Assembly: GCA_000995965.1 (NCBI GenBank) | Contig: LBYD01000001.1 | Span: 279,040-343,039 of the forward strand | DNA length: 64,000 bases | Source of the DNA: Candidatus Moranbacteria bacterium GW2011_GWC2_40_12 | GTDB lineage: Bacteria; Patescibacteriota; Minisyncoccia; Moranbacterales; UBA11712 | Reading direction: 5' to 3' | Shown here: positions 1,656 through 61,191 of the stretch, in pieces | How the letters are laid out: the number at the start of each line of letters is the position of its first letter | Position numbering within the stretch: the first letter of the stretch is position 1 | Notes under the pieces: model-generated | Database searches by the model: none | What the model was told of the DNA's origin: nothing | Seen by the model: only the letters and a program-made list of their open reading frames with translations | Made by a program: the position numbers and the translations under genes

Positions 1656-3497
1656 TTATTCCAATACTGCCTTGATTCTGCGCACTCCCGCACTGGAGGC
1701 TTCTTCTTTTTTTATACGAAAATTTCCAAGCGCACCTGTCGCGTCCGCGTGCGGACCGCCGCAGATTTCGGAAGAAAAATCAAAAATGCTGTATACCTTG
1801 ACTTTGTCCCCGTATTTTTCCCCGAATACCCCCATGGCACCCATTTTTTGCGCGTCTTCAAGCGTCATTTCCTCGCATTTCACGGGAATATCTTTTGAAA
1901 TGGCTTCGTTGACTAATCCTTCGGTTTTTTGAATTTCTTCTGGAGTCATTTTCTTTTCGTGGGAAAAATCAAGCCGCAATCTCTCGCCTGTGATGTTTGA
2001 TCCTTTTTGGATGACATGGTCACCCAATACTTTTCGGAGAGCCGCCAGAAGAAGATGCGTGGCTGTGTGAAGCCTGGCCGCGCTTTCGCCCGCATCCGCC
2101 AGTCCTCCCTTGAACATTCCCGCGCTGACCGTCCTCGACAGCTCCTGATGCTTTTTGAAATGTTCGTGATAAGATTCTTCATCTACTGCGATGCCATGTT
2201 CACGTGCGATTTCTTTGGTGAGTTCAAGCGGAAAGCCATATGTTGAAAAAAGATGAAAGGCTTTCTCGCCGGAAATTTTTTCCGCGCTCCGGCTTTCAGC
2301 GATGATTTCTTTTATTTTTTTGAGGCCTTTTTCAAGTGTTTGCCGGAATTTCATTTCTTCCTGATTGAGAGCTTCGATGATTTTTTCCGTTTCGCGTCCA
2401 AGCTCGGGATAAACTTCCTTATATTCGGAAATCACGACTTCCGCGATTTTCGAAGTGAAATTGCCTTCGATTCCCAGAATTTTTCCCTGGCGGACCGCCC
2501 GCCGGATGAGCCGGCGAAGGACATAGCCCCGCTCGACATTCGAAGGCAAAACGCCGTCCGCGATCATGAAAGTGGCCGCCTTCAAGTGGTCGGAAACTAT
2601 TCTCATGGAAATTTTTGATTCATCTTCGCTATAGTTTTTTGCGGACAACTCCTCGATCCTTCTGATAATGGGCTGAAAAAATTCCGTGTCAAAAACATTG
2701 TCTTTTCCGGTCAAAACGACAAGCGTTCTCTCCAGCCCCATGCCCGTGTCAACATTTTGCTGTTTCATTTTTTCAAAAGTCGCGTCCGCTTTTTTGTTGA
2801 ATTCCATGAAAACATCATTCCAGATTTCCATCAGACGAAAATTCTTGACAAGGCTTCCGAAAGTATCGTTCACTTTTCCGAGTTCCGGCGAAACATCATA
2901 AAACATTTCGGTGCAAGGCCCGCAAGGCCCCGTTTTTCCTGCCGGTCCCCACCAGTTGTCGTCTTTTCCAAGCGGAATAATTCTTTTCTCATAATTCACA
3001 ATCCTATCTTCGCCGGCTGCTTCGGCTTTGATGCCGACTTTGGCAAATTGCTCCTGCCAGATCCGGATGGATTCTTCGTCACGCACCGCGTCCTCATCGC
3101 CTTCAAACACCGTCACATAGAGCCGGCGCGGGTCGAGCCCCAGCCATTTTTCGCTTGTTATAAATTCAAAGCTCCACTCAATCGCTTCGCGTTTGAAGTA
3201 ATCTCCGAGCGACCAATTTCCGAGCATTTCAAAGAAAGTGAGATGGCGGTTGTCGCCCACTTCGTCAATATCAACAGTGCGGACGCATTTTTGGACGTTC
3301 GCGAGGCGCTTTCCTTTGGGATGTTTTTCGCCCATGAGAAAAGGCACGAGGGGATGCATTCCGGCGGTCGTGAAAAGCACCGTCGGGTCGTTTTCCGGAA
3401 CAACCGGAGCAGACGGAATGATGGCGTGTTCTTTTTCCTTGAAAAAATCGAGATATTTTTGTCTTAATTCTCGAGAGGTCATAAATTTCTTGGCCAA
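1656..3497 (-). CDS. alaS: alanyl-tRNA synthetase, short form (613 aa; catalytic + editing domains, no C-terminal C-Ala domain)
   Basis: N-terminus FTTAGMHPLVPF..., WSLGDYF, editing-domain HTATHLL motif; ends after GGPHADATG. Confidence 0.9.
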   Translation of the reverse strand: MAKKFMTSRELRQKYLDFFKEKEHAIIPSAPVVPENDPTVLFTTAGMHPLVPFLMGEKHPKGKRLANVQKCVRTVDIDEVGDNRHLTFFEMLGNWSLGDYFKREAIEWSFEFITSEKWLGLDPRRLYVTVFEGDEDAVRDEESIRIWQEQFAKVGIKAEAAGEDRIVNYEKRIIPLGKDDNWWGPAGKTGPCGPCTEMFYDVSPELGKVNDTFGSLVKNFRLMEIWNDVFMEFNKKADATFEKMKQQNVDTGMGLERTLVVLTGKDNVFDTEFFQPIIRRIEELSAKNYSEDESKISMRIVSDHLKAATFMIADGVLPSNVERGYVLRRLIRRAVRQGKILGIEGNFTSKIAEVVISEYKEVYPELGRETEKIIEALNQEEMKFRQTLEKGLKKIKEIIAESRSAEKISGEKAFHLFSTYGFPLELTKEIAREHGIAVDEESYHEHFKKHQELSRTVSAGMFKGGLADAGESAARLHTATHLLLAALRKVLGDHVIQKGSNITGERLRLDFSHEKKMTPEEIQKTEGLVNEAISKDIPVKCEEMTLEDAQKMGAMGVFGEKYGDKVKVYSIFDFSSEICGGPHADATGALGNFRIKKEEASSAGVRRIKAVLE

Positions 3498-4051: not shown

Positions 4052-5155
4052 TCAAATTATTGTGCCTCCCCCCAAAACTTCTCCATTTTTATAAAAAACC
4101 GCTGACTGGCCCGCTGTCACCGCCCGAAATGGCCTTTTAGTCTCGACAAGAAGCCTTCCCGACTTGCCTGGTATTATTTTAGCAGATATTCTCGTTGAAT
4201 GGTAGCGAATTTGAACGTCAGCCCGGAACGGCGATTTTTTCTTTTCATTTGTCCAATTGACTTTGCTCACCCAAAATTTCTCTTTGTGCAGCTTTTTCGA
4301 GTCGTTTGTGACAATCAGTTCATTTTTTCGAATATTTTTTCCGATTACCCAATACGGTCCGGTTCCTCCGATTTCGATCCCTTTTCGCTGTCCGATCGTA
4401 AAAATGGGCAAACCTCTATGTCTTCCCAAAACTTTTCCCGCTTCATCAATGATGTTTCCGGTTTCTGATTCAATATTCTTTGAAAAATATTTCATGGCGT
4501 CATTATCCGGCATAAAGCAGATATCTTGCGACTCATTCGTGGCAACCGGCAATTTCATTTCTTTCGCCATTTTTTTTACTTCTGATTTTTTATATCCTCC
4601 CAGCGGAAAAATAATTTTCGACAGATCTTTTTGAGCCAATTTATATAGAAAATACGATTGGTCTTTTGTTTTGTCTTCAGCTTCAAAAAGTCCGGCTTTG
4701 AAAAATTTCGGCGGCTTGCTGGCTGAAAGGCAAAGGCCGGACTTTGATTCACCGGCTAAAATACGCCCGCTTATTTTGGCGTAATGACCGGTTGCCGCAT
4801 AATCCGCCTTTTCTTTCTTCATCAAATCGAAAAGCAGGCAAAATTTCATCTCCTTGTTGCATACGACGCAGGGATTGGGGGTCTGGCCTTTTTTGTACGC
4901 GTTGAGAAAATAATCAATCACCCGCTTTTTGAATTCTTTCCGCGCGTCAATTATTTTCAGCGGAATTCCCAATTTATTCGCGATTTTTTTCACTTGGAAA
5001 CTTAGTTTCCAAGTTTGTTTGGTGAAGACAAAATAAGCACCAATAACTTCGTATCCCTGCTTTTTGAGCAGCGCCGCCGCCACTGCCGAATCCACCCCGC
5101 CGGAAAGGGCGACAACGATTTTTTTATGATTATCTTTTGGTCGCTTGTTCATCAT
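4052..5155 (-). CDS. mnmA: tRNA-specific 2-thiouridylase MnmA
   Basis: PP-loop SGGVDSAVAA, catalytic NPCVVCNKEMKF; contains an in-frame palindromic-element insertion (TWKLSFQV). Confidence 0.9.
   Translation of the reverse strand: MMNKRPKDNHKKIVVALSGGVDSAVAAALLKKQGYEVIGAYFVFTKQTWKLSFQVKKIANKLGIPLKIIDARKEFKKRVIDYFLNAYKKGQTPNPCVVCNKEMKFCLLFDLMKKEKADYAATGHYAKISGRILAGESKSGLCLSASKPPKFFKAGLFEAEDKTKDQSYFLYKLAQKDLSKIIFPLGGYKKSEVKKMAKEMKLPVATNESQDICFMPDNDAMKYFSKNIESETGNIIDEAGKVLGRHRGLPIFTIGQRKGIEIGGTGPYWVIGKNIRKNELIVTNDSKKLHKEKFWVSKVNWTNEKKKSPFRADVQIRYHSTRISAKIIPGKSGRLLVETKRPFRAVTAGQSAVFYKNGEVLGGGTII
4982..5004. repeat. PE-A: 23-nt perfect palindrome ACTTGGAAACT-T/A-AGTTTCCAAGT, copy inserted in-frame in mnmA
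   Basis: identical to the palindromes flanking and inside the RAYT-like gene at 14337-14996. Confidence 0.8.
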
Positions 5156-5286: not shown

Positions 5287-5796
5287 TTACAGCCCTTGAA
5301 AAGGCAGGACCGGGAAAAGCCGCGGTGAAGCTTGCGACTTGGGGCTGCTGCTCCATACGGTAAGCTGATCCATTGATCGGAGGATTTGCTCCGGCCGAAC
5401 CTGACTCAGAAAAGACCCGAGCGAGCCCCCCAGGAGTTGCAAACCGGAATTTCCAGCAACCTCCCTTAACGACTTTGTGAATATCCATCCTTCTCCGAGA
5501 TCCAACACCTCGTGGCGAAATACGAATTCACACTGGGTCTCGGTTAAAAAATCCACCCGGATGATGTCGGCCGACATTTGTCTTCCCCAGAAAGCGGTGT
5601 CGGAGCAGAAGATCAAATTGACGATTCCCCACTTTCCAGGTTCACGCACGAGTCCCGTGGGCCAGAAATTTAGTTTGAGCTCGCGAATGAACTCGTGAAT
5701 TGCCGCCCCCAAAACGAGCTGAGGCGGATAATTGTGGGGTAAAAGCAAACGCAAGCCGCGCACTATTTCAAAAAACAATTCGAGTCTCAACTTCAT
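5287..5796 (-). CDS. hypothetical protein, GC-elevated, no recognisable family (alternatively a structured RNA locus)
   Basis: strong SD AAGGAGGU 6 nt before ATG; TTGACA-like promoter upstream; two terminators downstream; composition about 50% GC versus about 38% in flanks; C-terminal half is low complexity. Confidence 0.35.
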   Translation of the reverse strand: MKLRLELFFEIVRGLRLLLPHNYPPQLVLGAAIHEFIRELKLNFWPTGLVREPGKWGIVNLIFCSDTAFWGRQMSADIIRVDFLTETQCEFVFRHEVLDLGEGWIFTKSLREVAGNSGLQLLGGSLGSFLSQVRPEQILRSMDQLTVWSSSPKSQASPRLFPVLPFQGL

Positions 5797-13827: not shown

Positions 13828-14313
13828 TTATTTCTTAAGATAATTTAGCAAAAATCTATTTGCTTCCTTGAAAGCATTGCGTGAATTCTTGTATGTAATA
13901 CGCTTGAGGGATTCTTTGTATTCCAGCCAGGAAAAGTTGACGTGTTCAAATGACAATCTCACCTCTTTTTCTTCTGTTTTTGCTAAATAGGCTGTAACTA
14001 TTTTAAAAATGTTTATTCCTCTATTTGACGCCTTTCGTTCTTTTTTCTCATTACCTTTTGCGCGGTAAAAATATTTATACCAAGTATAAAATCCCGGAAT
14101 TATTTCAAATTTTGTAATCCCTGTTTCTTCTTTGACTTCACGGCGCAATGCATCTTCCCATGTTTCTCCTTTTTCAATATGTCCTTTGGGGAAATCCCAA
14201 TGACCCTGAAAGCCATCGCTTTTCGGATGCTGGATTAGTAAATACAATATTTTATTTTTTTCCCTCCGGAACACCACTGCTCCGACTGATTTTTCAAATG
14301 GCATACTCTCCAC
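13828..14313 (-). CDS. NUDIX hydrolase
   Basis: Nudix box GHIEKGETWEDALRREVKEETGI. Confidence 0.85.
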   Translation of the reverse strand: MESMPFEKSVGAVVFRREKNKILYLLIQHPKSDGFQGHWDFPKGHIEKGETWEDALRREVKEETGITKFEIIPGFYTWYKYFYRAKGNEKKERKASNRGINIFKIVTAYLAKTEEKEVRLSFEHVNFSWLEYKESLKRITYKNSRNAFKEANRFLLNYLKK

Positions 14314-14334
14314 TTGGAAACTTAGTTTCCAAGT
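14312..14334. repeat. PE-A palindrome copy at the 3' flank of RAYT-1
   Basis: ACTTGGAAACTTAGTTTCCAAGT, ends 3 nt before the RAYT-1 stop. Confidence 0.85.
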
Positions 14335-14336
14335 CG

Positions 14337-14996
14337 TTATTCGATTATTAATTTTTCCATCTCCTTTTTGTCTTTTATAGAAACCAGCGATTCTTCCGCA
14401 AATTTTCGATAATCTTCCCCATTTTTGAAATCATCCAAAATCACGCGTTTTTCTCCGCAAAACGTCTTTTCTGAAAAATTATCCGTATATTCCCTCCAAC
14501 TTGAAATCGACTTGGAAACTAAGTTTCCAAGTGAATGGACACGGTCATTGAGATTCACGTAGGCGCTTAAGTGCAACAGATAGCTGTTTGTTTTTATATG
14601 GACTGCTTTGAATGTTCCCTGGAAAAGAGAACCAGAGCGCTCGTGCCTCTTGTTGAAATATTTTGTATAACCTATTCCGAGACGGTGCATGAATTTCTCA
14701 ATGCCCTGCTCGGCTGTCTGTTTGAGAATGAAATGATAGTGGTTAGGATTCAGGCAAAAACACACGAAACCGACCAATTTCTTTTTGGATTTGTTCTTTT
14801 CTTTTCTGTCGCGAAAAAAATTTTCATATATGCTTCCGATCGGATCAAGCGTATTGAATTCATCCATACTCTGAAGAAATCTCCGCATATCCAATTGATC
14901 ACTGAAAATTTCCCGCTTGTCCACTCCGCGATTGAAAATGTGGTAATATTCGCCTTCAGCCAATTGTATTTTTCTCATAGCTGGATTATAGCACAA
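14337..14996 (-). CDS. IS200/IS605-family Y1 (HuH) transposase, REP-associated tyrosine transposase-like (RAYT-1)
   Basis: EYYHIFNRG..., HuH motif NHYHFIL, conserved Y in YLLHLSAYVNLN, SGSLFQGTFK; flanked by PE-A palindromes on both sides and contains one in-frame. Confidence 0.8.
   Translation of the reverse strand: MCYNPAMRKIQLAEGEYYHIFNRGVDKREIFSDQLDMRRFLQSMDEFNTLDPIGSIYENFFRDRKEKNKSKKKLVGFVCFCLNPNHYHFILKQTAEQGIEKFMHRLGIGYTKYFNKRHERSGSLFQGTFKAVHIKTNSYLLHLSAYVNLNDRVHSLGNLVSKSISSWREYTDNFSEKTFCGEKRVILDDFKNGEDYRKFAEESLVSIKDKKEMEKLIIE
14510..14532. repeat. PE-A palindrome copy inside RAYT-1 coding sequence (in-frame, encodes LGNLVSKS)
   Basis: ACTTGGAAACTAAGTTTCCAAGT. Confidence 0.85.
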
Positions 14997-15004
14997 AACA
15001 ATCC

Positions 15005-15027
15005 ACTTGGAAACTAAGTTTCCAAGT
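15005..15027. repeat. PE-A palindrome copy at the 5' flank of RAYT-1
   Basis: ACTTGGAAACTAAGTTTCCAAGT, 9 nt upstream of the RAYT-1 start. Confidence 0.85.
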
Positions 15028-19282: not shown

Positions 19283-19362
19283 CGACTGACCTCCTTAGTC
19301 AAATGGATTTTTGAATAGATATATTAAAAATATCCTGACAAGTGACAAGAGCCCGGCTCTTG

Positions 19363-20418
19363 TCAAAACTTTTTCAACTCCTTCATAAACTCTTTGAGCA
19401 GATTTTTCTCCTCGACTTTTCTCAAAATTTTTCCCTTTTTGCAAATGAGCCCGACGCCTTCGCCGCCGATGACCGCGAGATCCGCTTCGCGCGCTTCGCC
19501 CGGTCCGTTCACCACGCACCCCATCACGGCCACGTGGATATTTTTATCCACGCCTTCGACCATTTTTTCCACTTTTTCCGCCAAACTTATCAAATCAATT
19601 TTTGTCCGCCCGCAAGTCGGGCAGCTTGTCACTGTGATTCCGCGTTTTCGAAGCCCCAATGATCGCAAAATTTCCCATGATACCTTCACTTCCTCGACTG
19701 GATCGGCCGTCAAAGATACGCGGATTGTATCACCAATGCCTTCGTAGAGCAAGTGGCCGATCCCAATAGACGACATTATCGTACCACGGAAAATGGTTCC
19801 CGCTTCGGTGATTCCGAGATGCAAAGGATAATCCACTTTTCGGCTCAAAAATTTATAGCTCTCGACCGTCCGCTCAATATCTGACGCTTTGAGTGAGATT
19901 ACAATATCCCTAAATTTTAGTTTTTCTAATATTTTTATATGCCGCATCGCCGATTCAACCATCCCTTCAGCCGTCACTTTATTTTTGTGCTTCGCGAGAA
20001 TATCTTTTTCAAGCGAACCCGCGTTCACCCCGATCCGGATGGGAATTTTTTTCTTCCGGCAGGCCGCGACGACAAGACCCACTTTTTCAACCGAACCAAT
20101 ATTCCCGGGATTAATCCGCAATTTGTCCACTCCCTGCTTCACGGCTTCCAGCGCCAACTCGTGCGAAAAATGAATGTCCGCCACGAGCGGAATGTTTATC
20201 CTTTTCTTTATTTTTCCCAATACTTTCGCCGCCGCCATATCCGGCACAGCCACGCGAATGATTTCACACCCCGCTTTTTCTAGTTTTTTTATCTGCGCGA
20301 TTGTCCCGGCGACATCCTCTGTTTTTGTGTTCGCCATCGACTGCACCGCCACCGGCGCGTCGCCACCGATGAAAATTTTCCCGACTTTTATTTTTTTGGT
20401 TTTTCGGCGTTTGATCAT
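19363..20418 (-). CDS. ispG: 4-hydroxy-3-methylbut-2-en-1-yl diphosphate synthase IspG (GcpE)
   Basis: KIFIGGDAPVAVQSM..., C-terminal Cys cluster; start placed at MIKRRK (TATAAT just upstream) rather than the 105-aa upstream extension in the ORF track. Confidence 0.9.
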   Translation of the reverse strand: MIKRRKTKKIKVGKIFIGGDAPVAVQSMANTKTEDVAGTIAQIKKLEKAGCEIIRVAVPDMAAAKVLGKIKKRINIPLVADIHFSHELALEAVKQGVDKLRINPGNIGSVEKVGLVVAACRKKKIPIRIGVNAGSLEKDILAKHKNKVTAEGMVESAMRHIKILEKLKFRDIVISLKASDIERTVESYKFLSRKVDYPLHLGITEAGTIFRGTIMSSIGIGHLLYEGIGDTIRVSLTADPVEEVKVSWEILRSLGLRKRGITVTSCPTCGRTKIDLISLAEKVEKMVEGVDKNIHVAVMGCVVNGPGEAREADLAVIGGEGVGLICKKGKILRKVEEKNLLKEFMKELKKF

Positions 20419-20488
20419 ACACTTAATATTATACAAATCCGGAAAAAAGAAAAGGGCAGCCCTCCATGGCCGCCCCGGGGAATCTAAA

Positions 20489-20692
20489 TTATTTTTCTCT
20501 AACCTTGCTTCTTGCGGGCTGACGTATCTTTGCCACATAGCCCTGGCTGACGCCGTCTTTGGGATTCTTGGAGTTCTCCTTTTTTTCACACCTCTTAGTC
20601 CTATCACAGTTATTACACTCCGTATACCCTTTCCTGCGATAGCAATATTCAGTTCCCGTAAAAATACAACGAAACCATAATGATTCTGCCAT
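20489..20692 (-). CDS. small cysteine-rich protein B (68 aa), downstream member of tandem pair
   Basis: SD GGAGGG 4 nt before ATG; CIFTGTEYC...CNNCDRTKRC. Confidence 0.5.
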   Translation of the reverse strand: MAESLWFRCIFTGTEYCYRRKGYTECNNCDRTKRCEKKENSKNPKDGVSQGYVAKIRQPARSKVREK

Positions 20693-20702
20693 GTTTCCCT
20701 CC

Positions 20703-20885
20703 TCAAAATAATGGTGGCTGTCTCTTTTTGCACTTGTCACAGATAGTTTTTCTTGTCCGATCGTTTTCCTCCGCGCCGCATGTCTTTGGATCAAGATCGC
20801 ATTCGGCGCATTCACTGAGTCCGGACTCGTCTTCACAGGAGAGATTCCTCCCGCAAACACAACATTTCTCAGTCAGAGTTTTCAA
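20703..20885 (-). CDS. small cysteine-rich protein C (60 aa, TTG start), upstream member of tandem pair
   Basis: SD AAGGAGG 6 nt before TTG; four CxxC-like pairs (CCVCG, CEDESGLSEC, CAEC, CDKC). Confidence 0.5.
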   Translation of the reverse strand: MKTLTEKCCVCGRNLSCEDESGLSECAECDLDPKTCGAEENDRTRKTICDKCKKRQPPLF

Positions 20886-23850: not shown

Positions 23851-23857
23851 AGCCCTT

Positions 23858-23878
23858 CGTAGGTGTCGGACACCTACG
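23858..23878. repeat. PE-B: 21-nt perfect palindrome CGTAGGTGTC-G/C-GACACCTACG at 3' flank of RAYT-2
   Basis: distinct from PE-A; located between P-type ATPase start and RAYT-2 stop. Confidence 0.85.
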
Positions 23879-23880
23879 AT

Positions 23881-24528
23881 TTATTCTAGTAAATATTTCT
23901 CCCTTTCCTTTTTCTCTTTCATATACAAAGAATTTTCTTTTATAAATTCTCGATATTCATTCTTATTTTTAAATTCATTAAGAATAACACCTGTGTCACA
24001 AATCCCCCCGTTTCTTTTCCCAGTATAATCTAAAAAACTGGAATATGGCCAGTCAAAATCGTCACCGTATCCATGAATAAAATAGTTTTTGTTAACATAG
24101 GCTGATAAATAAAGAAGATGTGCGTTTGTCCTTATACGGATCGATTTAAATTTCCCCTGAAACAATACTCCGGATCTTTTGTAATGATAGTTGAAATAAT
24201 TTGTATAACCGCCTCCGAGCCTTTTCATATATTCAGAAATTCCATGTTCTGTTGATTGTTTTAAGATCAAGTGAAAATGATTCGGATTAAGACAATAACA
24301 TATGATTTCAACTAATTTTTCCATTCGTAGGTGTCCGACACCTACGTCTTGCTTTCTTTCTTGCTGACTGTGCCTATACAAGCTATGGATAGGATCAATT
24401 TGGTTAAATTCTTTCATGGACGTTAAAAATCGATTATAGTCTCTGTTGGATAAAAAAACTTTCCGTTTTTCAACGCCACGGTTATAAATGTGGTAATATT
24501 CATTGACATCTAGGGGTTGTTTTCTCAT
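23881..24528 (-). CDS. IS200/IS605-family Y1 transposase, RAYT-like (RAYT-2), paralog of 14337-14996
   Basis: EYYHIYNRG, NHFHLIL (HuH), YLLYLSAYVNKN, SGVLFQGKFK; own palindrome PE-B on both flanks and in-frame (VGVGHLR). Confidence 0.8.
   Translation of the reverse strand: MRKQPLDVNEYYHIYNRGVEKRKVFLSNRDYNRFLTSMKEFNQIDPIHSLYRHSQQERKQDVGVGHLRMEKLVEIICYCLNPNHFHLILKQSTEHGISEYMKRLGGGYTNYFNYHYKRSGVLFQGKFKSIRIRTNAHLLYLSAYVNKNYFIHGYGDDFDWPYSSFLDYTGKRNGGICDTGVILNEFKNKNEYREFIKENSLYMKEKKEREKYLLE
24326..24346. repeat. PE-B palindrome copy inside RAYT-2 coding sequence (in-frame)
   Basis: CGTAGGTGTCCGACACCTACG. Confidence 0.85.
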
Positions 24529-24534
24529 AAACCT

Positions 24535-24552
24535 TAGGTGTCGAACACCTAC
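24535..24552. repeat. degenerate PE-B copy at the 5' flank of RAYT-2
   Basis: TAGGTGTCGAACACCTAC (one mismatch in loop). Confidence 0.7.
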
Positions 24553-25209: not shown

Positions 25210-25248
25210 TTAGAGCTTCGCTAAAGTTGAACCTTAGCGAGAATAGAA

Positions 25249-25276
25249 AGAGCGGATATTTCCGCTCTTTTTCTTT
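25249..25276 (+). terminator. intrinsic terminator downstream of the PilX-like gene
   Basis: AGAGCGGATATTTCCGCTCT + TTTTCTTTATTTT. Confidence 0.5.
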
Positions 25277-25642
25277 ATTTTATAACATAACTCGACCCAA
25301 CATTAACCATTCCTAAAGTTGAACTTTAGGAAGAGAGGATATCTCGTGGATATTGTCAGTTATTGATTGATGTCAAATCACTATCATACGATAGTAAAAC
25401 AAAAAGCTAAAAAAGGAATCGAAAAATTTTAGAGTTTTGCTAAGGTTCGACCTTAGCAAAGGCAGGAATTGGAAATTTTTTTATATTTCCTTCCTTCCCT
25501 CAATTGCGCCGGTGAGTAACCATTCCTAAAGTTTAACTTAAGGAAGTCAAAAAGAACGAGTCCACAGCTCGTTCTTTGAATATTATCCAAAAATTTGTTA
25601 TCCTAAGGCTTCCTAACATCCGATGTTAGAAAATAGAAAACT

Positions 25643-25674
25643 CACCGCTTTCGAGCGGTGGGTTTTTCTTTTGC
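25643..25674. terminator. bidirectional intrinsic terminator (serves htrA on minus strand)
   Basis: CACCGCTTTCGAGCGGTG flanked by A-rich (5') and T-rich (3') runs. Confidence 0.45.
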
Positions 25675-25747
25675 GGATTCTTTTGTAACCCTTACCAACA
25701 TTGAATGTTGGTAAGATGTTGGTAAGAAAAAAAGCGGTTTAGTTTTT

Positions 25748-25768
25748 GTAGGTGTCCGACACACCTAT
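25748..25768. repeat. degenerate PE-B copy just 3' of htrA
   Basis: GTAGGTGTCCGACACACCTAT. Confidence 0.6.
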
Positions 25769-25773
25769 GAGTT

Positions 25774-27045
25774 TCATTTCCTCTCCTCCAGTTTCACTTG
25801 AACTGTTTTTTCCTCGCCTTTGTGCCAGATTTTCAGGTTGATTGTGTCGCCGACGTTCGATTTCGCGATTTGGTCGCTCAATAGATTTTTTTCATCAATC
25901 TTCACGCCGTTTATTTCAAGAATAATGTCATTTTCCGTGAGTCCCGCTTTGTCCGCCGGACTTCCCGGAACAACCGCGAAGTCAGTCACTTTTTGCCCGC
26001 GAAGCACCAGCGCGCCATAGCCATATGGCAAATTATTTGCTTTCTTTATTTCTTCCGTTATTGGTATGTATCGCACGCCAATGTAAGGCTGGACTATTTT
26101 TCCTTTCGATTTCACGCTTTCGATGCCCTTTTTCACGATATTTATGGGAAGCGCAAAACCGATGTTTTCAGCCCCTTGCGCCATTGCAACATTCACGCCT
26201 ATCACCTGTCCGCTGATATTGAGAAGAGGCCCGCCGGAATTCCCCGGATTGATGGCCGCGTCTGTCTGAATCACCTCGCTCAAAGTTTCCGCCTGCCCGA
26301 ATCCATCTCCGGCCGTCACATTGCGTTTGAGGCCGGAAATGATTCCTTTGCTGACCGTGTTTCGAAATTCCCCGAGCGAATTTCCGATCGCAATGACCGT
26401 CTGCCCAATTTTCAAATTGCCTGAATCGGCCAATTCCAAAACCGGCAAATTGTTTCCGGCTTCGATCTTGAGAATGGCAACGTCGTTCACCGGATCGATT
26501 GCCATCACCTTAGCCGCGTGTTTTTTTTCGTCATTTGTCATCACGGTATATTCCGCCTCCTGGTCGGAAACAACATGCTTATTGGTCACAATCAGCCCAT
26601 CTTTTGAAACGATAAATCCCGAACCTCCGCCAATTTCCTGTTTTTCCGTCTCTCCCTGATTTTGCTGTTGCCTCTGGCTCGATCCGAAAGGATTGAAAAA
26701 AGGATCAAAACCGAAGGGATCGGAAAAAAAGTCCTGCATTTTTGGAATGTCTTTGGAAACAATGATACTCACCACAGCCGGCGAAGCTTTTTCGACTGAC
26801 GCCGTCACGGCCGATTCTTCATCGGGAAAATTGATGGTGCTCCCCGCACTGCCAGAATTCTTTTGCCCGACCTGATTTTGATTTTTCTTCAAAAAATCAA
26901 GGCTGAATTTTCCCTGCCCCAGATTCCCAGCCATAAAACCAAAAAGAGCCCCGAAAAATGAGGAAATGAGAAATGTGATAACAAAAAAACCGATCAGAAT
27001 TTTTTTATAAGTTTTTACCAATTCTTTGTTTTCTCGATTGAGCAT
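25774..27045 (-). CDS. htrA: HtrA/DegP-family periplasmic serine protease with PDZ domain
   Basis: GNSGGPLLN catalytic Ser motif, His/Asp triad context, C-terminal PDZ, N-terminal TM anchor. Confidence 0.9.
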   Translation of the reverse strand: MLNRENKELVKTYKKILIGFFVITFLISSFFGALFGFMAGNLGQGKFSLDFLKKNQNQVGQKNSGSAGSTINFPDEESAVTASVEKASPAVVSIIVSKDIPKMQDFFSDPFGFDPFFNPFGSSQRQQQNQGETEKQEIGGGSGFIVSKDGLIVTNKHVVSDQEAEYTVMTNDEKKHAAKVMAIDPVNDVAILKIEAGNNLPVLELADSGNLKIGQTVIAIGNSLGEFRNTVSKGIISGLKRNVTAGDGFGQAETLSEVIQTDAAINPGNSGGPLLNISGQVIGVNVAMAQGAENIGFALPINIVKKGIESVKSKGKIVQPYIGVRYIPITEEIKKANNLPYGYGALVLRGQKVTDFAVVPGSPADKAGLTENDIILEINGVKIDEKNLLSDQIAKSNVGDTINLKIWHKGEEKTVQVKLEERK

Positions 27046-40441: not shown

Positions 40442-40538
40442 CTGACAGTCTCCTATTGAGGAATTTTACGAATGAAAAAAGAGCTGGATAGCCCTTCTTT
40501 CTTCTATCATATTCTGAAATTTATTTCAAGCCTGTCGT

Positions 40539-40561
40539 TTCCTAATCTCCGAGATTAGGAA
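40539..40561. repeat. 23-nt perfect palindrome TTCCTAATCTC-C-GAGATTAGGAA (CTAA-N9-TTAG family) just 3' of rplL
   Basis: same termini (TTCCTAA...TTAGGAA) as array members at 25310 and 25610. Confidence 0.7.
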
Positions 40562-40566
40562 ATTGA

Positions 40567-44082: not shown

Positions 44083-44406
44083 TCACTTCATATTTGGAGG
44101 CCTGTTTGTTTTCCAATTCCTTGGAGGAATTGGAGGAATGGGGTTCTTCGGCGTAGTGTTGCGGTCGCTTTCGCAACACGCGAAGCAGTGATAATCACGC
44201 CAAGTTGCTTTTCCCGATAGAATGCGTTCGATTTTCGTCCACGCCAGGGTTGTTTCACATCCCTCCGTGTCGCATTTCATTGGCGGCAAATCATGCGAAA
44301 TGTGCTTTTTGGCAGCCTCGGGCGAAGCATAAATCGATTGATCAACTCCGCCAGAGCTCTTCCGGGCGGGAAGTGAAGTGCTCCATCCTTTATCTTGATT
44401 TTGCAT
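44083..44406 (-). CDS. small cysteine-rich protein F (107 aa), downstream member of tandem pair
   Basis: SD AAGGGAG before ATG; CDTEGCETT...HCFACCES; Pro-rich tail. Confidence 0.45.
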   Translation of the reverse strand: MQNQDKGWSTSLPARKSSGGVDQSIYASPEAAKKHISHDLPPMKCDTEGCETTLAWTKIERILSGKATWRDYHCFACCESDRNTTPKNPIPPIPPRNWKTNRPPNMK

Positions 44407-45665: not shown

Positions 45666-47417
45666 TCACCAGCTTCCTCCGCCTCCGCCACCGAATCCAC
45701 CGCCACCTCCCCCTCCGGAAAAACCGGAACCGCCGCCGGATGCTGAAGATGGCTGGCTGGCCATGGCCGTCCCGGCTGTATTCGAAAAATCATTTATCAG
45801 GCTTGATAAAATTATAGCATTGAAAGCCCGCCCAGACGAATCCTCGTACCAGTCCGGCTGCTGGTTGTATATTCCTTCAAATTGCTTCGCCCATTCTTTT
45901 TCAACCCCAAGAACCATCGCGTAGGGTAGAAATCTTTCGAACATCTGGGGATTTTTCTCGGGCGCGTTATGAAATTTCAACCGATCCGTTTCCGTGACAG
46001 AGAGAAAATCCTTGAATCCCAGAATATTTTCCTTGATCCCGGCGCCTTTTTTGGTCACCGCCGGCATCAGCCAGCCAAAGATTGCTATGATTATCGTCGA
46101 GACAATCCCGCTAAACACTCCCCATCCTCCCTGAAGATTGCCGAAAATCACTGTGAGGAATACTCCGCCGATTATCCCGCCAATAAGCCAACCAGCTCTC
46201 GTACTATTCGGATTTGAAACATAATATCCTTTTTCTGTGATGCCCTTATAAAGCTGGTCTTTTACCGCCGCGAGGGTTTTGAAAAATTTGTTTTTGAGAT
46301 CCGATAATTTCTTTTCTTTATCCCCATTGAAGATTCCCTTCATCACTTCTTTTTCAAAATCCCGCGTCGGCTCTTCATCCTTGATTTTAATAAACGTATA
46401 ATCCTTGCTTTTCGTCCCGAAAAATCCCTTTTCCTCCGTGCGTTTGATTTTCAAGAATTTGTTGACAGCCAGATCAATGATTGTCGAAGAAACATCCTTG
46501 TTGTCCGCCGAACCATCCATCATTGTTCCGATTTCCGCCGGCGCGAGCTTGTCCGGCGGTTCATATTGCGCGATGATTGTCCCCCGCCCTTTCGGGTCAC
46601 GGCCCTTTTTGCTCCAAAGGCGATACATAAAGACAAAAACAATGATTGGAAAAAATAGCGTCCAGTTATCGCGCGCGATATCCATAATTTTTACCCTAGA
46701 GCTCAGCTCTAGGGTAATTCCTTTCGGCCAGCCGGCGACAATCGTCATCCCTTCGCCGGGATTGATTATTCCCGTTGATTTATATTCTAAAATATTTCCG
46801 CTCGCGCTTGCCACGCATTCATTCGTGGTCCCAAAAACTCCTTCAAAGCATTTGTACTGCAAATTTTCTATGGCGTTTTCTGGAAGAATAATTTTGAGCG
46901 CTGCGCTCTCAATGGGGACTGGCCATTTGTCGCCCGTGAAGTTCCAATAAAGCTCATCGTGATCTGGGAAAAAATTCACCGCCCGACGAATTACGTAACT
47001 AATTACGTAATTCTTCGTCCCGCTGACGTATTTGTCCGCGTCGCCGATTTGAAATTTTATATTCTCGCCCTCGTAATCCGTGGTGAAATTATACGGCGCG
47101 CCGTTTTCGTCCGTGATTTTCATGTTCGAAACCCGCAAATTATAATTCCCTCCCCGCGCTTTGTATTTCACCGGAATGAACCGGAAAATTCCGTGCTTCT
47201 GCTGGTCGCCAAAGTCATAAGCGATAGTCTCTTTTACATCAATCGTGCTGTCTGAGTTTATTCGGATATCGCCGATGAAATTTATGATTTTCTCGGTGCT
47301 AGGATAACTTTGTGCAAAAGATGAATTTAAGGAAAATATAAGAAATAAGAAACAAGAAATAAGAAAAATTGGAAATTTTTTATTTCTTCTATTTATTTTT
47401 TCTATTTTATTTCTCAT
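45666..47417 (-). CDS. DUF2207-like membrane protein (large extracytoplasmic N-domain, C-terminal TM pair, Gly-rich tail)
   Basis: signal peptide, ...GGGSGFSGGGGGGGFGGGGGGSW tail; carries in-frame PE-C palindrome (TLELSSRV). Confidence 0.65.
   Translation of the reverse strand: MRNKIEKINRRNKKFPIFLISCFLFLIFSLNSSFAQSYPSTEKIINFIGDIRINSDSTIDVKETIAYDFGDQQKHGIFRFIPVKYKARGGNYNLRVSNMKITDENGAPYNFTTDYEGENIKFQIGDADKYVSGTKNYVISYVIRRAVNFFPDHDELYWNFTGDKWPVPIESAALKIILPENAIENLQYKCFEGVFGTTNECVASASGNILEYKSTGIINPGEGMTIVAGWPKGITLELSSRVKIMDIARDNWTLFFPIIVFVFMYRLWSKKGRDPKGRGTIIAQYEPPDKLAPAEIGTMMDGSADNKDVSSTIIDLAVNKFLKIKRTEEKGFFGTKSKDYTFIKIKDEEPTRDFEKEVMKGIFNGDKEKKLSDLKNKFFKTLAAVKDQLYKGITEKGYYVSNPNSTRAGWLIGGIIGGVFLTVIFGNLQGGWGVFSGIVSTIIIAIFGWLMPAVTKKGAGIKENILGFKDFLSVTETDRLKFHNAPEKNPQMFERFLPYAMVLGVEKEWAKQFEGIYNQQPDWYEDSSGRAFNAIILSSLINDFSNTAGTAMASQPSSASGGGSGFSGGGGGGGFGGGGGGSW
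46691..46717. repeat. PE-C: palindrome TTACCCTAGAGCT-C-AGCTCTAGGGTAA in-frame in DUF2207 gene
   Basis: identical 25-nt core also inside secA at 55354-55378. Confidence 0.8.
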
Positions 47418-55258: not shown

Positions 55259-57904
55259 TTACGCCCCGCAACATTTTTTATACTTTTTCCCCGATCCGCA
55301 TGGGCATGGGTCATTGCGGCCGATTTCGGTTTTATTGCGGATAGTCTGGCCGCTTACCCTAGAGCTCAGCTCTAGGGTCGAATCTGAAGCGAATTGCGCC
55401 GGCTGTTCCTCCGCCCCCTGATATTTCGCCTCTTCAAGGATATTTTTTTGCGGAGCCGGCTCTTCTTTCAATAAGCCGACTTTGAAAATATTTGTGATGA
55501 CCGCGATTCGGATGGCTGCCATCAAATTCTGGAAAAGAAGGTAGGCTTCTTTTTTATATTCCACCAGCGGATCCCTCTGTCCGTATCCCCGAAGCCCGAT
55601 TCCTTCCCGAAGATAATCAACATCGTCCAAATGGTTCATCCAAAAAGTATCGATGGCGCGCAGATACATAGCTTTTTCAATCTGGCGCATAATTTCCGGC
55701 TTGATTTCCTGCTCTTTCTTCCCATAAGCTTCTTTGGCCAATCCTTTTAAAAATTCGATAATGGCAGAAACTTTTTGAACATCATTCATGTGATCCTTGG
55801 AGCGCTTGAGTTCCAAAAGTCTCTTGAAAGAGTCCTCATCAACCCGAAAAATTTGTCCCAAAGCATCTTTTATCTCTCCCACATTCCAATCCTCCGCGTG
55901 TCCAGCCGTGTGAAGACCCACAATCTGCTCGATTTCTTCTTCAACCATCCCGATGATTTCACTCTTCAATGTTTCCTTTGTGAGAATTTCTTTGCGTTTC
56001 TTGTATATCACTTCCCTTTGCTTGTTCATCACGTCGTCGTATTCCAAGACATGTTTTCTGATATCAAAATTGAAACCTTCAATCTTGGCTTGGGCGGACT
56101 CGATCGATTTTGAAATAATTTTGTTCTCAATCGGCTGGTCTTCAGGAAGGCCGAAGCGGTCCATGATATTTTTCACCCGGTCGCCGCCGAAACGTCTCAT
56201 CAGCTCATCCTCAAGTGAAACATAAAATTGCGAAGCTCCCGGATCGCCCTGCCGGCCGGCGCGACCGCGCAGCTGATTGTCGATCCTCCGCGCTTCGTGC
56301 CGTTCGGTTCCGATGATGCGAAGGCCGCCCAGACCTGCCACACCCTCGCCGAGCTTGATGTCAGTTCCCCGCCCGGCCATATTCGTGGCAATGGTCACCG
56401 CGCCGCGCTGCCCGGCTTTGGCGATGATAAGCGCTTCCCGTTCGTGATTTTTGGCATTCAAAACTTCGTGCTCGACACCGGTTTTGGCAAGCATGTCCGA
56501 AAGGACTTCCGACTTCTCAATCGCGACTGTACCCACCAGCACCGGCTGTCCCTTTCCGCTGAGGCGCTTTATTTCCTCGATCACCGCCCTGAATTTTCCG
56601 TCTTCGGTTTTGTATACCATATCCGGGTGGTCTTCACGGATCATCGGCACATTGGTCGGTATCGGAACCACATCGAGATTATAAACTTTGGCGAATTCTT
56701 CGGCACTGGTGAGTGCCGTCCCGGTCATCCCGGATAATTTTTTGTAGATGCGGAAATAATTTTGGAAAGTAATCGTTGCCAGAGTCCTTGATTCTTTCTG
56801 CACTTCGACGTTTTCTTTGGCTTCTATGGCCTGATGAAGTCCTTCGGAATATCTTCGCCCCGGCATCAAGCGACCAGTGAAATCGTCAACTATGATGACT
56901 TGCCCGTCCCGAACGACATAATCGCGATCAAGCTTGAATAAAATGTTGGCTTTCAAGGCCTGCTCGAGCTGGTGGACATAGGAAATTTTCGATATGTCAT
57001 AAATATTTCCGATGCCGAGCATTTCTTCGACTCTTCCGATTCCTTTTTCTGTGAGCGACACTGCCCTCATCTTCTGATCAACTGTGAAATCTTCATCTTC
57101 TTTGAGCCGCGGGACGATTTGGGCAAATCGTTTATAAAGTTTGGTTGATTCCGAATCCGGCGCGCTGATGATAAGAGGCGTCCTGGCCTCATCAATCAAA
57201 ATGCTGTCTACTTCGTCCACAATGGCATAATTCAGTTCTCGCTGCACCATTTGGTCAAGACTTTGCACCATATTGTCCCGGAGATAATCGAACCCGAATT
57301 CGTTGTTTGTGCCATAGGTGATGTCAGCCGCGTAGGCCTCGCGTCGCGAAACGGGTCTCAGATTTTCCGTTTCAATGCTAACTTCGTCAGAATCATGAAT
57401 TTTTGGTTCGTACATAAAAGACGCATCATGCTGGATGCTCGCACAAGTGAGACCGAGGAAATGATAAATCGGTCCCATCCAATTCATATCCCGCTTGGCG
57501 AGATAATCATTGACTGTCACCACATGAACTCCTTTTCCTGAAAGCGCGTTGAGATATACTGCGGTAGTGGCTGTATGCGTCTTTCCTTCTCCTGTTTTCA
57601 TTTCGGCAATTTTTCCTTCATGAAGAGTGATTCCGCCCAGGAGCTGGACATCGAAAAGCCTTTTTTCATCCACTCTCTTTATCGCTTCGCGCACTACGGA
57701 AAAAGATTCCGGAAGTATATCATCCGTTTTTTCGCCTCCGCCAGACGGCGGATTCAGCCTCTTTTTGAATTCATTCGTTTTTGCTTTCAGCTCTTCGTCG
57801 GACAGCTTGCTGACCGCCGCTTCGAGTTCGTTTATCTTTTCGACCAAAGGCTGGAGCTTTTTCACTTGCCGTTCGGCTCCGCCAAATAAGCGTTTTAGAA
57901 TCAT
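55259..57904 (-). CDS. secA: preprotein translocase ATPase SecA (with C-terminal zinc finger [14 protein letters not shown])
   Basis: DEAD-like motor domains, full-length alignment to SecA; PE-C palindrome in-frame near C-terminus. Confidence 0.9.
55354..55378. repeat. PE-C palindrome copy in-frame in secA (encodes TLELSSRV)
   Basis: TTACCCTAGAGCTCAGCTCTAGGGT identical to 46691-46715. Confidence 0.8.
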
Positions 57905-60465: not shown

Positions 60466-60611
60466 TTCATTAAAAATAAAATCTTCCGCATAGGAAGATA
60501 AGAAATTTATATCTTTCCCTTGCGGGCTAGAGGTAGCACCACGTCTAATAAAAATTAGATTGGTTGCTGGCAGGTCGCAGGGCTAGTTCCCTCGCTGCGC
60601 TCTTGATACTC
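60466..60611 (-). promoter_or_regulatory. SAM-I (S-box) riboswitch with terminator expression platform in the metK leader
   Basis: minus-strand AUCAAGAG-CGCAGCGAGGGAACUAGCCCUGCGACCUGCCAGCAACC...GGUGCUACCUCUAGCCCGCAAGGGAAAGAUA matches SAM-I core; followed by AUCUUCCUAUGCGGAAGAU + UUUAUUUUU just before ATG. Confidence 0.7.
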
Positions 60612-60699
60612 GCCCCGACCTTAATGCGTCGGGGCTTTATTCAATTTTCGAAAGATATATGTATTATAGCGTTTTATATATTCGAGTCAAGGACAATAG

Positions 60700-60772
60700 T
60701 GGACCCGAGGGGATTCGAACCCCTCGCCTCCTCGGTGCAAACGAGGCGCTCTACCAAATGAGCTACGGGCCC
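60700..60772 (-). tRNA. tRNA-Ala (anticodon UGC)
   Basis: cloverleaf folds; G3:U70 identity pair; anticodon loop UUUGCAC. Confidence 0.85.
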
Positions 60773-60789
60773 AAATATACAGTTTATCT

Positions 60790-60860
60790 TGTAAGGCTGT
60801 AAAACAAAAAAGGCGCTCGGACCCTGTCCGCCTTTGGCGGAAAATGAGCTACGGGCCCGC
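60790..60860. repeat. element upstream of tRNA-Ala: conserved hairpin (GGCGCUCGGACCCUGUCCGCC) plus direct copy of the first 20 nt of tRNA-Ala
   Basis: aaaatgagctacgggcccgc at 60841-60860 duplicates tRNA 5' end (60753-60772). Confidence 0.6.
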
Positions 60861-60877
60861 AAACCTAGTTCAAGATG

Positions 60878-60990
60878 CAAAAATCAAAATGAAAAATTTT
60901 GGTGTTCGCTTCGCTCACTTATTTTTAAAAAATAATCATCGCGAAGCGATACATTAATTTTGCACTTTTAATTTTGAATTTTCAATTTAT
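60878..60990. repeat. about 110-bp dispersed repeat with inverted TCGCTTCGC/GCGAAGCGA arms (copy 1)
   Basis: about 85% identical to 63068-63175. Confidence 0.7.
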
Positions 60991-60994
60991 TATG

Positions 60995-61068
60995 TGGGCG
61001 ATCGAGGATTCGAACCTCGGACCTCGTCATTATCAGTGACGCGCTCTAACCAACTGAGCTAATCGCCC
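60995..61068 (-). tRNA. tRNA-Ile (anticodon GAU)
   Basis: cloverleaf folds; anticodon loop CUGAUAA. Confidence 0.85.
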
Positions 61069-61118
61069 AAAGTTTGTTTCTTGCTACGTAGTTTGTTACG
61101 TAACGAGGTAAGTAAATG

Positions 61119-61191
61119 TGGGTCGTGCAGGGATCGAACCTGCGACCATCAGCTTAAAAGGCTGCTGCTCTACCAACTGAGCTAACGACCC
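61119..61191 (-). tRNA. tRNA-Lys (anticodon UUU)
   Basis: cloverleaf folds; anticodon loop CUUUUAA. Confidence 0.85.

Follow-up and report, generated by a model that had tools for sequence, protein, structure and literature searches.

Repetitive extragenic palindromic (REP) elements, the REP-associated tyrosine transposases (RAYTs) that accompany them, and REPINs are well described in Proteobacteria, including E. coli, Pseudomonas, and Stenotrophomonas, and we know of no RAYT for which the mode of REP movement has yet been demonstrated. To our knowledge, RPE-1, one of the Rickettsia palindromic elements (RPEs), has no cognate transposase. Both intragenic REPs and RPEs have been reported as palindromes lying in frame inside functional genes, including those for tRNA synthetases, to which they add short peptides, with intragenic copies making up a small minority in those surveys (Di Nocera et al. 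2013, PMC3733652). Here, we compare with these systems a 23-nt perfect palindrome, PE-C (ACCCTAGAGCTCAGCTCTAGGGT), that lies within two genes of a 64,000-nt stretch of the genome of Candidatus Moranbacteria bacterium GW2011_GWC2_40_12 (contig LBYD01000001.1, positions 279,040 to 343,039; referred to below as the window), together with a Y1-transposase gene, RAYT-C, that is bracketed by the same palindrome outside the window. We consider it probable, at roughly 0.8, that PE-C is a REP-like family dispersed by a dedicated transposase, RAYT-C, in a system of the REP/RAYT type, and that its intragenic copies are tolerated passengers. Loci and proteins used for comparison are cited by their L and P numbers.

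PE-C has two exact copies in the window, at 46693-46715 and 55356-55378. No third site was found in the 64 kb, even with up to three mismatches allowed, and 100 dinucleotide-preserving shuffles of the window yielded 0 matches, confirming that the observation is real and not a chance match. The copy at 55356-55378, with 11-nt arms around a 1-nt center, lies in secA (55259..57904, minus strand), whose 881-amino-acid product has all SecA Pfam domains plus the SEC-C motif and is 100% identical to the SecA of Candidatus Moranbacteria RIFOXYB1_FULL_44_23 and relatives, genomes from the Rifle aquifer; since the TT at 55354-55355 has no mirrored AA, the palindrome there is 23 nt and not longer. The other copy lies in a gene for a membrane protein of the DUF2207 family (45666..47417, minus strand; 583 amino acids, with Pfam-supported N- and C-terminal domains), where a 27-nt perfect palindrome at 46691-46717 (TTACCC...GGGTAA) surrounds the 23-mer core at 46693-46715. 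Both copies are in frame and encode TLELSSRV, at residues 843 to 850 of SecA, in the linker that follows the SecA_SW domain (up to residue 809) and precedes the SEC-C zinc motif (863 to 880), and at residues 235 to 242 of the DUF2207 protein, between its N-terminal domain (44 to 230) and its first hydrophobic stretch. Sequence, open reading frames (ORFs), and Pfam domains thus agree with a preliminary description of the window in which the 23-mer had been placed in frame in both genes.

On either strand, two phases of PE-C run into TAG and one is open, as read directly from the sequence. The open phase, xCC CTA GAG CTS AGC TCT AGG Gxx, encodes TLELSSRV, and its center base gives CTC or CTG, both leucine codons, so that the same peptide results from either orientation. 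The preliminary description had stated as much for the two copies in the window. These cannot demonstrate it, because both host genes are on the minus strand and the two copies have identical orientation, with G as the coding-strand center; the glmM copy and the secA copy of L006 described below have the opposite coding-strand center base and do demonstrate either-strand coding. As DNA, the hairpin has a folding energy of -9.6 to -11.2 kcal/mol (z about -5 to -6), and no Rfam family was found at the palindromes. Perfect palindromes are a general feature of the window: with a minimum arm length of 10 nt and a maximum spacer of 3 nt, there are 18, versus 0.6 in shuffles.

The exact 23-mer had 0 matches in 185,579 species-representative genomes; evidently, the window's strain is not the representative or the copies differ. 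In public metagenomes, exact PE-C was found at 16 loci that represent about 12 distinct sites, genic and intergenic (the latter in L003, L005, and L007), from independent assemblies, a count that comes from an exact-match scan in which diverged copies are missed. The earlier claim that PE-C is a palindrome family of its own is borne out by these sites. At least six of the distinct sites are within conserved genes (secA in two lineages, the DUF2207 gene, leuS, glmM, and ychF), and all genic copies are in the TLELSSRV frame, with both orientations represented. leuS and glmM each carry an in-frame copy read as TLELSSRV, as does a second, different SecA lineage (L006); in ychF, a duplicated half arm beside the in-frame copy adds SSRV, and in an Nramp gene PE-C is in frame at the annotated N terminus. 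Inverted doublets of the REPIN kind occur. Single-arm direct duplications, with or without a few flanking bases, were also seen beside full copies (L009, about 941-966; L001, 222-233; window, 25715-25726).

A six-frame hidden Markov model (HMM) scan found only two Y1-transposase ORFs in the window, RAYT-A and RAYT-B, neither of them associated with PE-C. The preliminary description had likewise seen no cognate RAYT in the window and had supposed that a third might exist elsewhere, and such a gene was recovered: RAYT-C, a Y1/HUH transposase ORF with PE-C on both flanks in L009, L011, L014, and L099 to L103 (L099 17879-18538, intact, 219 amino acids; L009 332..928). One PE-C copy lies 38 nt upstream of the RAYT-C start codon and a second lies 2 to 4 nt past the stop codon, and such an extra half-arm repeat stands between the upstream copy and the start codon; in the window, RAYT-A and RAYT-B have flanking palindromes in the same arrangement. 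RAYT-C is on another contig of the window's own genome, as judged from accession contiguity and locus tags rather than from contiguous sequence. Its accessions (HBU25264, KKT33159, KKR43373, and OGI35817) are close in number to those of the window's SecA (HBU25067, KKT33914, KKR44716, and OGI34992), and one copy bears the locus tag UX02_C0007G0024, with the UX02 prefix common to the window's RAYT-B, which is identical to UX02_C0002G0168 of GW2011_GWC1_45_18. The best nonself relatives of RAYT-C are 77 to 85% identical and are located on contigs unlinked to the window's genome.

Gene callers have produced RAYT-C products of 171, 182, 198, and 219 amino acids from otherwise identical DNA. The seemingly truncated 182- and 171-amino-acid forms were dismissed as differences in gene calling or scaffold gaps, the DNA of L099, L100, and L102 being identical, with the intact 219-amino-acid ORF. 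A 63-nt in-frame deletion affects RAYT-C in L009 (GW2011_GWF1_44_4), and the corresponding position in L101 is a scaffold gap. This gap or deletion in two assemblies is the sole irregularity that might be connected with an assembly or sequencing artefact, for which no support was found; the same sites and flanks recur in JGI, ENA, and NCBI assemblies that are independent of one another and stem from different samples, and the chance that PE-C and its arrangement are artefactual is practically negligible.

RAYT-C passed the Pfam Y1_Tnp threshold, and a precomputed PF01797 match is present on homologs as well. The protein has the HxH motif and the SAYVN tyrosine, and H68/H70 and Y128 are invariant across 56 homologs. 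An AlphaFold model made with these 56 homologs has a mean predicted local distance difference test (pLDDT) score of 81.8, and its best fold match in the PDB is the E. coli RAYT-REP hairpin complex 4er8 (E = 6.3e-7; template modeling [TM] scores of 0.53/0.62), with the IS200, IS608, and ISDra2 transposases behind it at E values of about 1e-3. Some relatives are labeled "REP element-mobilizing transposase RayT" by the JGI pipeline. The Y1_Tnp domain, the hairpins at both gene ends, and the structural likeness to the TnpA proteins of IS608 and ISDra2 would also suit an autonomous IS200/IS605-like insertion sequence comprising RAYT-C and its two flanking palindromes, of which solo palindromes would be end remnants or miniature derivatives. 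IS200/IS605 enzymes are Y1 HUH transposases that act on subterminal single-stranded-DNA hairpins, and in that respect the two are alike. However, those elements are multicopy and autonomous, their left and right ends differ, and their target is a defined tetra- or pentanucleotide, whereas here the same symmetric hairpin stands at both ends, each diverged transposase gene occurs singly, and nothing but the hairpin of about 23 nt is repeated. Further, no multicopy identical insertion sequence accompanies the three transposases, which are about 50% identical and each have a different palindrome; no tnpB gene adjoins; and RAYT, rather than the IS200 transposases, is the best structural match. We regard an insertion sequence of this kind as quite improbable.

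RAYT-A (14337..14996, minus strand) and RAYT-B (23881..24528, minus strand) score 30.0 and 32.6 bits, respectively, against Pfam Y1_Tnp (gathering threshold, 23). The pairwise identity among the three transposases is about 50% (about 48% between RAYT-A and RAYT-C), and the HxH motif and the SAYVNxN tyrosine are common to all of them. The palindrome of RAYT-A, PE-A (ACTTGGAAACT.AGTTTCCAAGT), flanks its gene at 14312-14334 and 15005-15027, occurs in frame within the RAYT-A ORF at 14510-14532 (peptide LGNLVSK), and is found in frame in mnmA, the tRNA 2-thiouridylase gene, at 4992-5014 (peptide TWKLSFQV). That of RAYT-B, PE-B (TCGTAGGTGTC.GACACCTACGA), which unlike PE-C contains GTAG, forms the 3' flank at 23857-23879, with a degenerate copy in the 5' flank at about 24535-24551 and another copy in frame within the RAYT-B ORF at 24326-24346 (peptide VGVGHLR).

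The pairing of transposase and palindrome extends beyond this genome. A scan of GTDB genomes with a RAYT alignment returned at least 552 loci, of which 80 were kept (L019 to L098); their titles are mostly those of Patescibacteria, with about 12 others, e.g., "uncultured Gammaproteobacteria" and "Bdellovibrionales". A perfect palindrome lies within 150 nt of the 5' end of the gene in 46 of the 80 loci and of the 3' end in 50, and the same one is present on both sides in 28. The more the transposases diverge, the more the palindrome arms differ in their 9 loop-proximal nucleotides (Mantel r = 0.39, reached by 0 of 2,000 permutations), with means of 1.7 arm differences for proteins less than 30% diverged and about 6 for those more than 55% diverged. 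The palindromes of the nearest RAYT-C relatives, L019 to L021, are CCGAGAGC, CCTAGAGC, and CCAAGAGC, of the CC[T/A/G]AGAGC type. In 59 of the 80 loci, a perfect palindrome is also present inside the RAYT ORF, clustered at +160 to 200 nt (45) and +440 to 480 nt (17) from the start; it is the same as the flanking one in 43 loci and is often an inverted doublet. Same-family copies diverge in their flanks, and yet the sequence is still palindromic past the point of divergence in 62% of cases versus about 25 to 30% expected. For PE-C, the left and right flanks are TTA...TAA, TCTTA...TAAGA, CCTTTA...TAAAGG, TTTTTTA...TAAAAAA, and TCGA...TCGA. Such mirrored flanks suggest either that PE-C inserts centrally into short palindromes or hairpin loops or that the hairpin serves as a template for extension.

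How PE-C came to lie in its host genes is less straightforward. The preliminary description had the palindrome inserted in frame, and while the frame is as described, both window copies substitute for about eight ancestral codons, with net changes of 0 amino acids in the DUF2207 protein and -2 in SecA. All 31 DUF2207 orthologs examined are equal in length to the window protein and lack the segment, the exchange being one of 24 nt for 24 nt; in the closest (78% identity; L106), ACG CCG GAG CCA ACT TTC TTT CAA stands where the window has ACC CTA GAG CTG AGC TCT AGG GTA, and the flanks are conserved. SecA orthologs at 85 to 89% identity read QF-GAAKESQKGKSVPT-SGQ at the PE-C site; a homologous GA(A/T) TC(T/G) is followed by eight differing codons, after which identity resumes, and the secA of L006 likewise shows -2 amino acids relative to P0020. 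The copy of PE-A in mnmA is not a net insertion either, since the MnmA loop that holds it is 8 amino acids shorter than in solved MnmA structures. leuS and glmM differ in this respect: without the 21-nt core CCCTAGAGCTSAGCTCTAGGG, leuS has the length of its orthologs and glmM that of its solved homologs, and each has a clean gain of seven codons between A and T. Taken together, the +21 nt in leuS and glmM, the 0 in DUF2207, and the -2 amino acids in SecA indicate a mobile core of probably 21 nt. Where the linker is constrained, the arrival of PE-C is accompanied by the loss of 21 to 27 nt of target, whether through the mechanism itself or through selection on length. Judged from sequence comparison, the orthologs of SecA and the DUF2207 protein without the segment point to a recent arrival in the host genes; in keeping with the preliminary description, PE-C copies exist beyond those of the window, and SecA orthologs at 79 to 89% identity lack TLELSSRV.

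Several derivations of the two window sites were discarded. An opposite-strand GAATCT match would allow the left flank in secA to have arisen by local inversion, but it is possibly a chance 6-mer, and GA(A/T)TC(T/G) aligns directly. Nor are the replaced SecA codons a decayed PE-C, with 4/24 identity and no palindromic structure. Insertion requiring microhomology to one arm is not general, with 8/12 matches at the DUF2207 site but 2/12 in secA.

The length-neutral exchanges raise the alternative that the palindromes are spread or renewed by templated, length-preserving conversion instead of cut-and-paste, whether as hairpin-for-hairpin exchange, replication-fork template switching, or capture of excised hairpin oligonucleotides in gap or break repair, with RAYT supplying only the nick or the oligonucleotide. 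Conversion would fit the exact swap of eight codons between conserved flanks in the DUF2207 gene, with 31 of 31 orthologs of equal length, and the eight differing codons between the homologous GA(A/T)TC(T/G) and the resumed identity in secA. It would also fit the agreement between ORF-internal and flanking palindromes in 43 of the 80 RAYT loci, the excess of symmetric copy-specific flanks (62% versus about 25 to 30%), and a related palindrome with mirrored arm changes at the same SecA site in another species, described below. The clean 21-nt insertions between A and T in leuS and glmM do not fit, however; the inconsistent microhomology just noted argues against it; and selection on linker length, together with hairpin-stimulated deletion of adjacent DNA, could mimic replacement. 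On balance, we consider conversion unlikely and prefer dispersal of PE-C by RAYT-C.

That other palindrome is in the SecA P0021 gene (83% identity; L107, about 2805-2830), where AACCGAGAGC-CGA-GCTCTCGGTT, read as NREPSSRL, lies at the PE-C position of the linker. Two mirrored substitutions, present on both arms, set it apart from PE-C, and closer SecA orthologs have no palindrome there. The C-terminal linker of SecA looks like a recurrent landing site. At the same linker, SecA P0028 has the segment QEPSSRV, and P0014 (L018), P0016, P0052, P0060, P0064, and P0065 have extra segments of 10 to 14 amino acids (PASLREALLAG, SASLREASLAG, etc.), the DNA for the one in L018 being a degenerate palindrome. 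In the genome encoding SecA P0020, a Y1_Tnp (RAYT-like) gene (L108 2997-3255) starts 42 nt downstream of the secA stop codon. Among Moranbacteria homologs of LeuRS (P0247, P0248, P0273, and others), many are 950 to 1,040 amino acids long, with an extra NUDIX (PF00293) or PF10706 domain, and are apparent fusions.

The recurrence of TLELSSRV in flexible linkers of several essential proteins, and the palindrome-derived segments in the SecA linkers of several lineages, could be taken to mean that the peptide, or the DNA or RNA hairpin, is a module selected by the host as a protein motif, a regulator site, or an mRNA structure. However, none of the 22 specified bases varies among copies, synonymous positions included, and the sequence is found in intergenic DNA as well; the host proteins are unrelated, their orthologs do without TLELSSRV, and the palindrome is tightly associated with a transposase gene. 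A host-selected module is very unlikely on these grounds, and we prefer to read the intragenic copies as passengers that are tolerated in flexible segments, not as functional modules.

Under the preferred reading, single-stranded DNA carrying a PE-C copy, a perfect palindrome of 21 to 23 nt, would fold into a hairpin with a 10-bp stem and a loop of 3 nt, and the apparently single-copy RAYT-C most likely recognizes and cuts this hairpin, thereby dispersing PE-C. In a densely coding genome, many landing sites would be intragenic, and an intragenic copy would persist only if it was read in the one phase without stops and had landed in a loop or linker that tolerates it. This double requirement would account for the same octapeptide in the SecA linker, the DUF2207 interdomain linker, the LeuRS loop, GlmM, and YchF. 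We infer both the catalysis of PE-C spread by RAYT-C and the route by which target DNA was lost at some sites.

Several of our results weigh against this reading. PE-C copy number appears low, roughly 10 per genome versus hundreds for classical REPs; the 12 or so sites and one RAYT-C locus were recovered from incomplete genome assemblies. PE-C begins with ACCC and contains CTAG but has neither the GTAG nor the CGTC foot tetranucleotide of classical REPs. Against the NCBIfam RAYT equivalog NF047646 (cutoff, 80 bits), scores were 23 to 30 bits, with 27.7 bits for RAYT-C and values well short of the cutoff for RAYT-A and RAYT-B too, and neither a phmmer search with RAYT-C nor an hmmsearch with the 56-sequence profile gave a relevant sequence match in the PDB. 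At both window sites, 24 nt were replaced, not 21 to 23 nt added, which a simple single-site insertion of the IS200 type does not predict. Finally, no empty/filled polymorphism was found among near-identical SecA alleles.

Compared with known systems, PE-C and RAYT-C resemble REP/RAYT in combining a short dispersed palindrome with an apparently single-copy Y1/HUH gene bracketed by it, in the presence of several families per genome, each with its own transposase, in the inverted doublets, and in the predicted fold closest to 4er8. They differ in their host phylum, Patescibacteria (part of the Candidate Phyla Radiation [CPR]), in low copy number, and in the missing foot tag; in palindromes that are perfect, 21 to 27 nt long, and centered on a single unpaired base, whereas the classical REP hairpin is imperfect; in being intragenic at about half of sites rather than predominantly extragenic; in the cognate copies at two conserved positions within the transposase ORF; and in a protein too diverged for the NCBIfam equivalog or a PDB sequence match. 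Like intragenic REPs and RPEs, PE-C lies in frame inside functional genes, but in the window both copies stand in place of ancestral codons and add no length, and RPEs are roughly 100 to 150 bp long, compared with 21 to 27 nt and a cognate transposase here. PE-C/RAYT-C is a REP/RAYT kind of selfish DNA, albeit a noncanonical one in which several canonical REP traits are missing.

The window holds further palindromes. An intergenic segment at 25210-25775, downstream of a PilX_N-like ORF, contains at least six different hairpins, including TTCCTAAAGTT.AACTTTAGGAA (twice), TTTGCTAAGGT...ACCTTAGCAAA, CTTACCAACATT.AATGTTGGTAAG (accompanied by a half-arm duplication), and a PE-B copy that is degenerate. 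Of these families, the first and third are also found in L099 (a doublet at 5321-5368, 20228, and 2720-3314), so that the genome has at least five families. Single-copy perfect palindromes are present at 40538-40562 (TTTCCTAATCTC.GAGATTAGGAAA) and 44112-44134 (TCCAATTCCT-TGG-AGGAATTGGA, with a half copy at 25464), and a further one, at 19343-19365 (TGACAAGAGCC-C-GGCTCTTGTCA), runs into the 3' end of ispG (GcpE; 19363..20733, minus strand), whose TGA stop codon consists of the final three bases of the palindrome. Elsewhere in the window are a SAM riboswitch (47 bits versus a gathering threshold of 44.4) upstream of a minus-strand gene and an adjoining tRNA-Ala/Ile/Lys cluster without rRNA (60506-60612 and 60699-61191).

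In a literature search conducted mostly without subscription journals, we found no report linking RAYT or REPIN elements with CPR, Parcubacteria, or Patescibacteria. Three features make the system worth following up, namely, length-neutral codon replacement, flanks that mirror each other, and cognate hairpins inside the transposase ORFs. As a tentative and rather doubtful extension, Patescibacteria may harbor a distinct class of RAYT-driven hairpin elements that propagate and homogenize by symmetric, often length-preserving DNA rewriting, perhaps by exchanging a hairpin for the resident sequence or by synthesis primed from the hairpin once the stem has been nicked at its foot. Such rewriting would jointly explain the perfect palindromes, the mirrored flanks, the mirrored substitutions in the SecA ortholog, the eight overwritten codons in secA and the DUF2207 gene, and the ORF-internal hairpins at two fixed positions, possibly serving autoregulation; if it does occur, REPs would have a new way of propagating, and short stretches of essential genes would be rewritten by a natural system.

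For studying REP movement in vitro, a lineage whose small genomes contain many short, perfectly symmetric families, each beside its own enzyme, offers a compact system. The intragenic copies suggest that selfish hairpins repeatedly rewrite the linkers of essential proteins (SecA, LeuRS, GlmM, and YchF) without lethality, which is of relevance to the evolution of protein linkers and to the annotation of CPR genomes.

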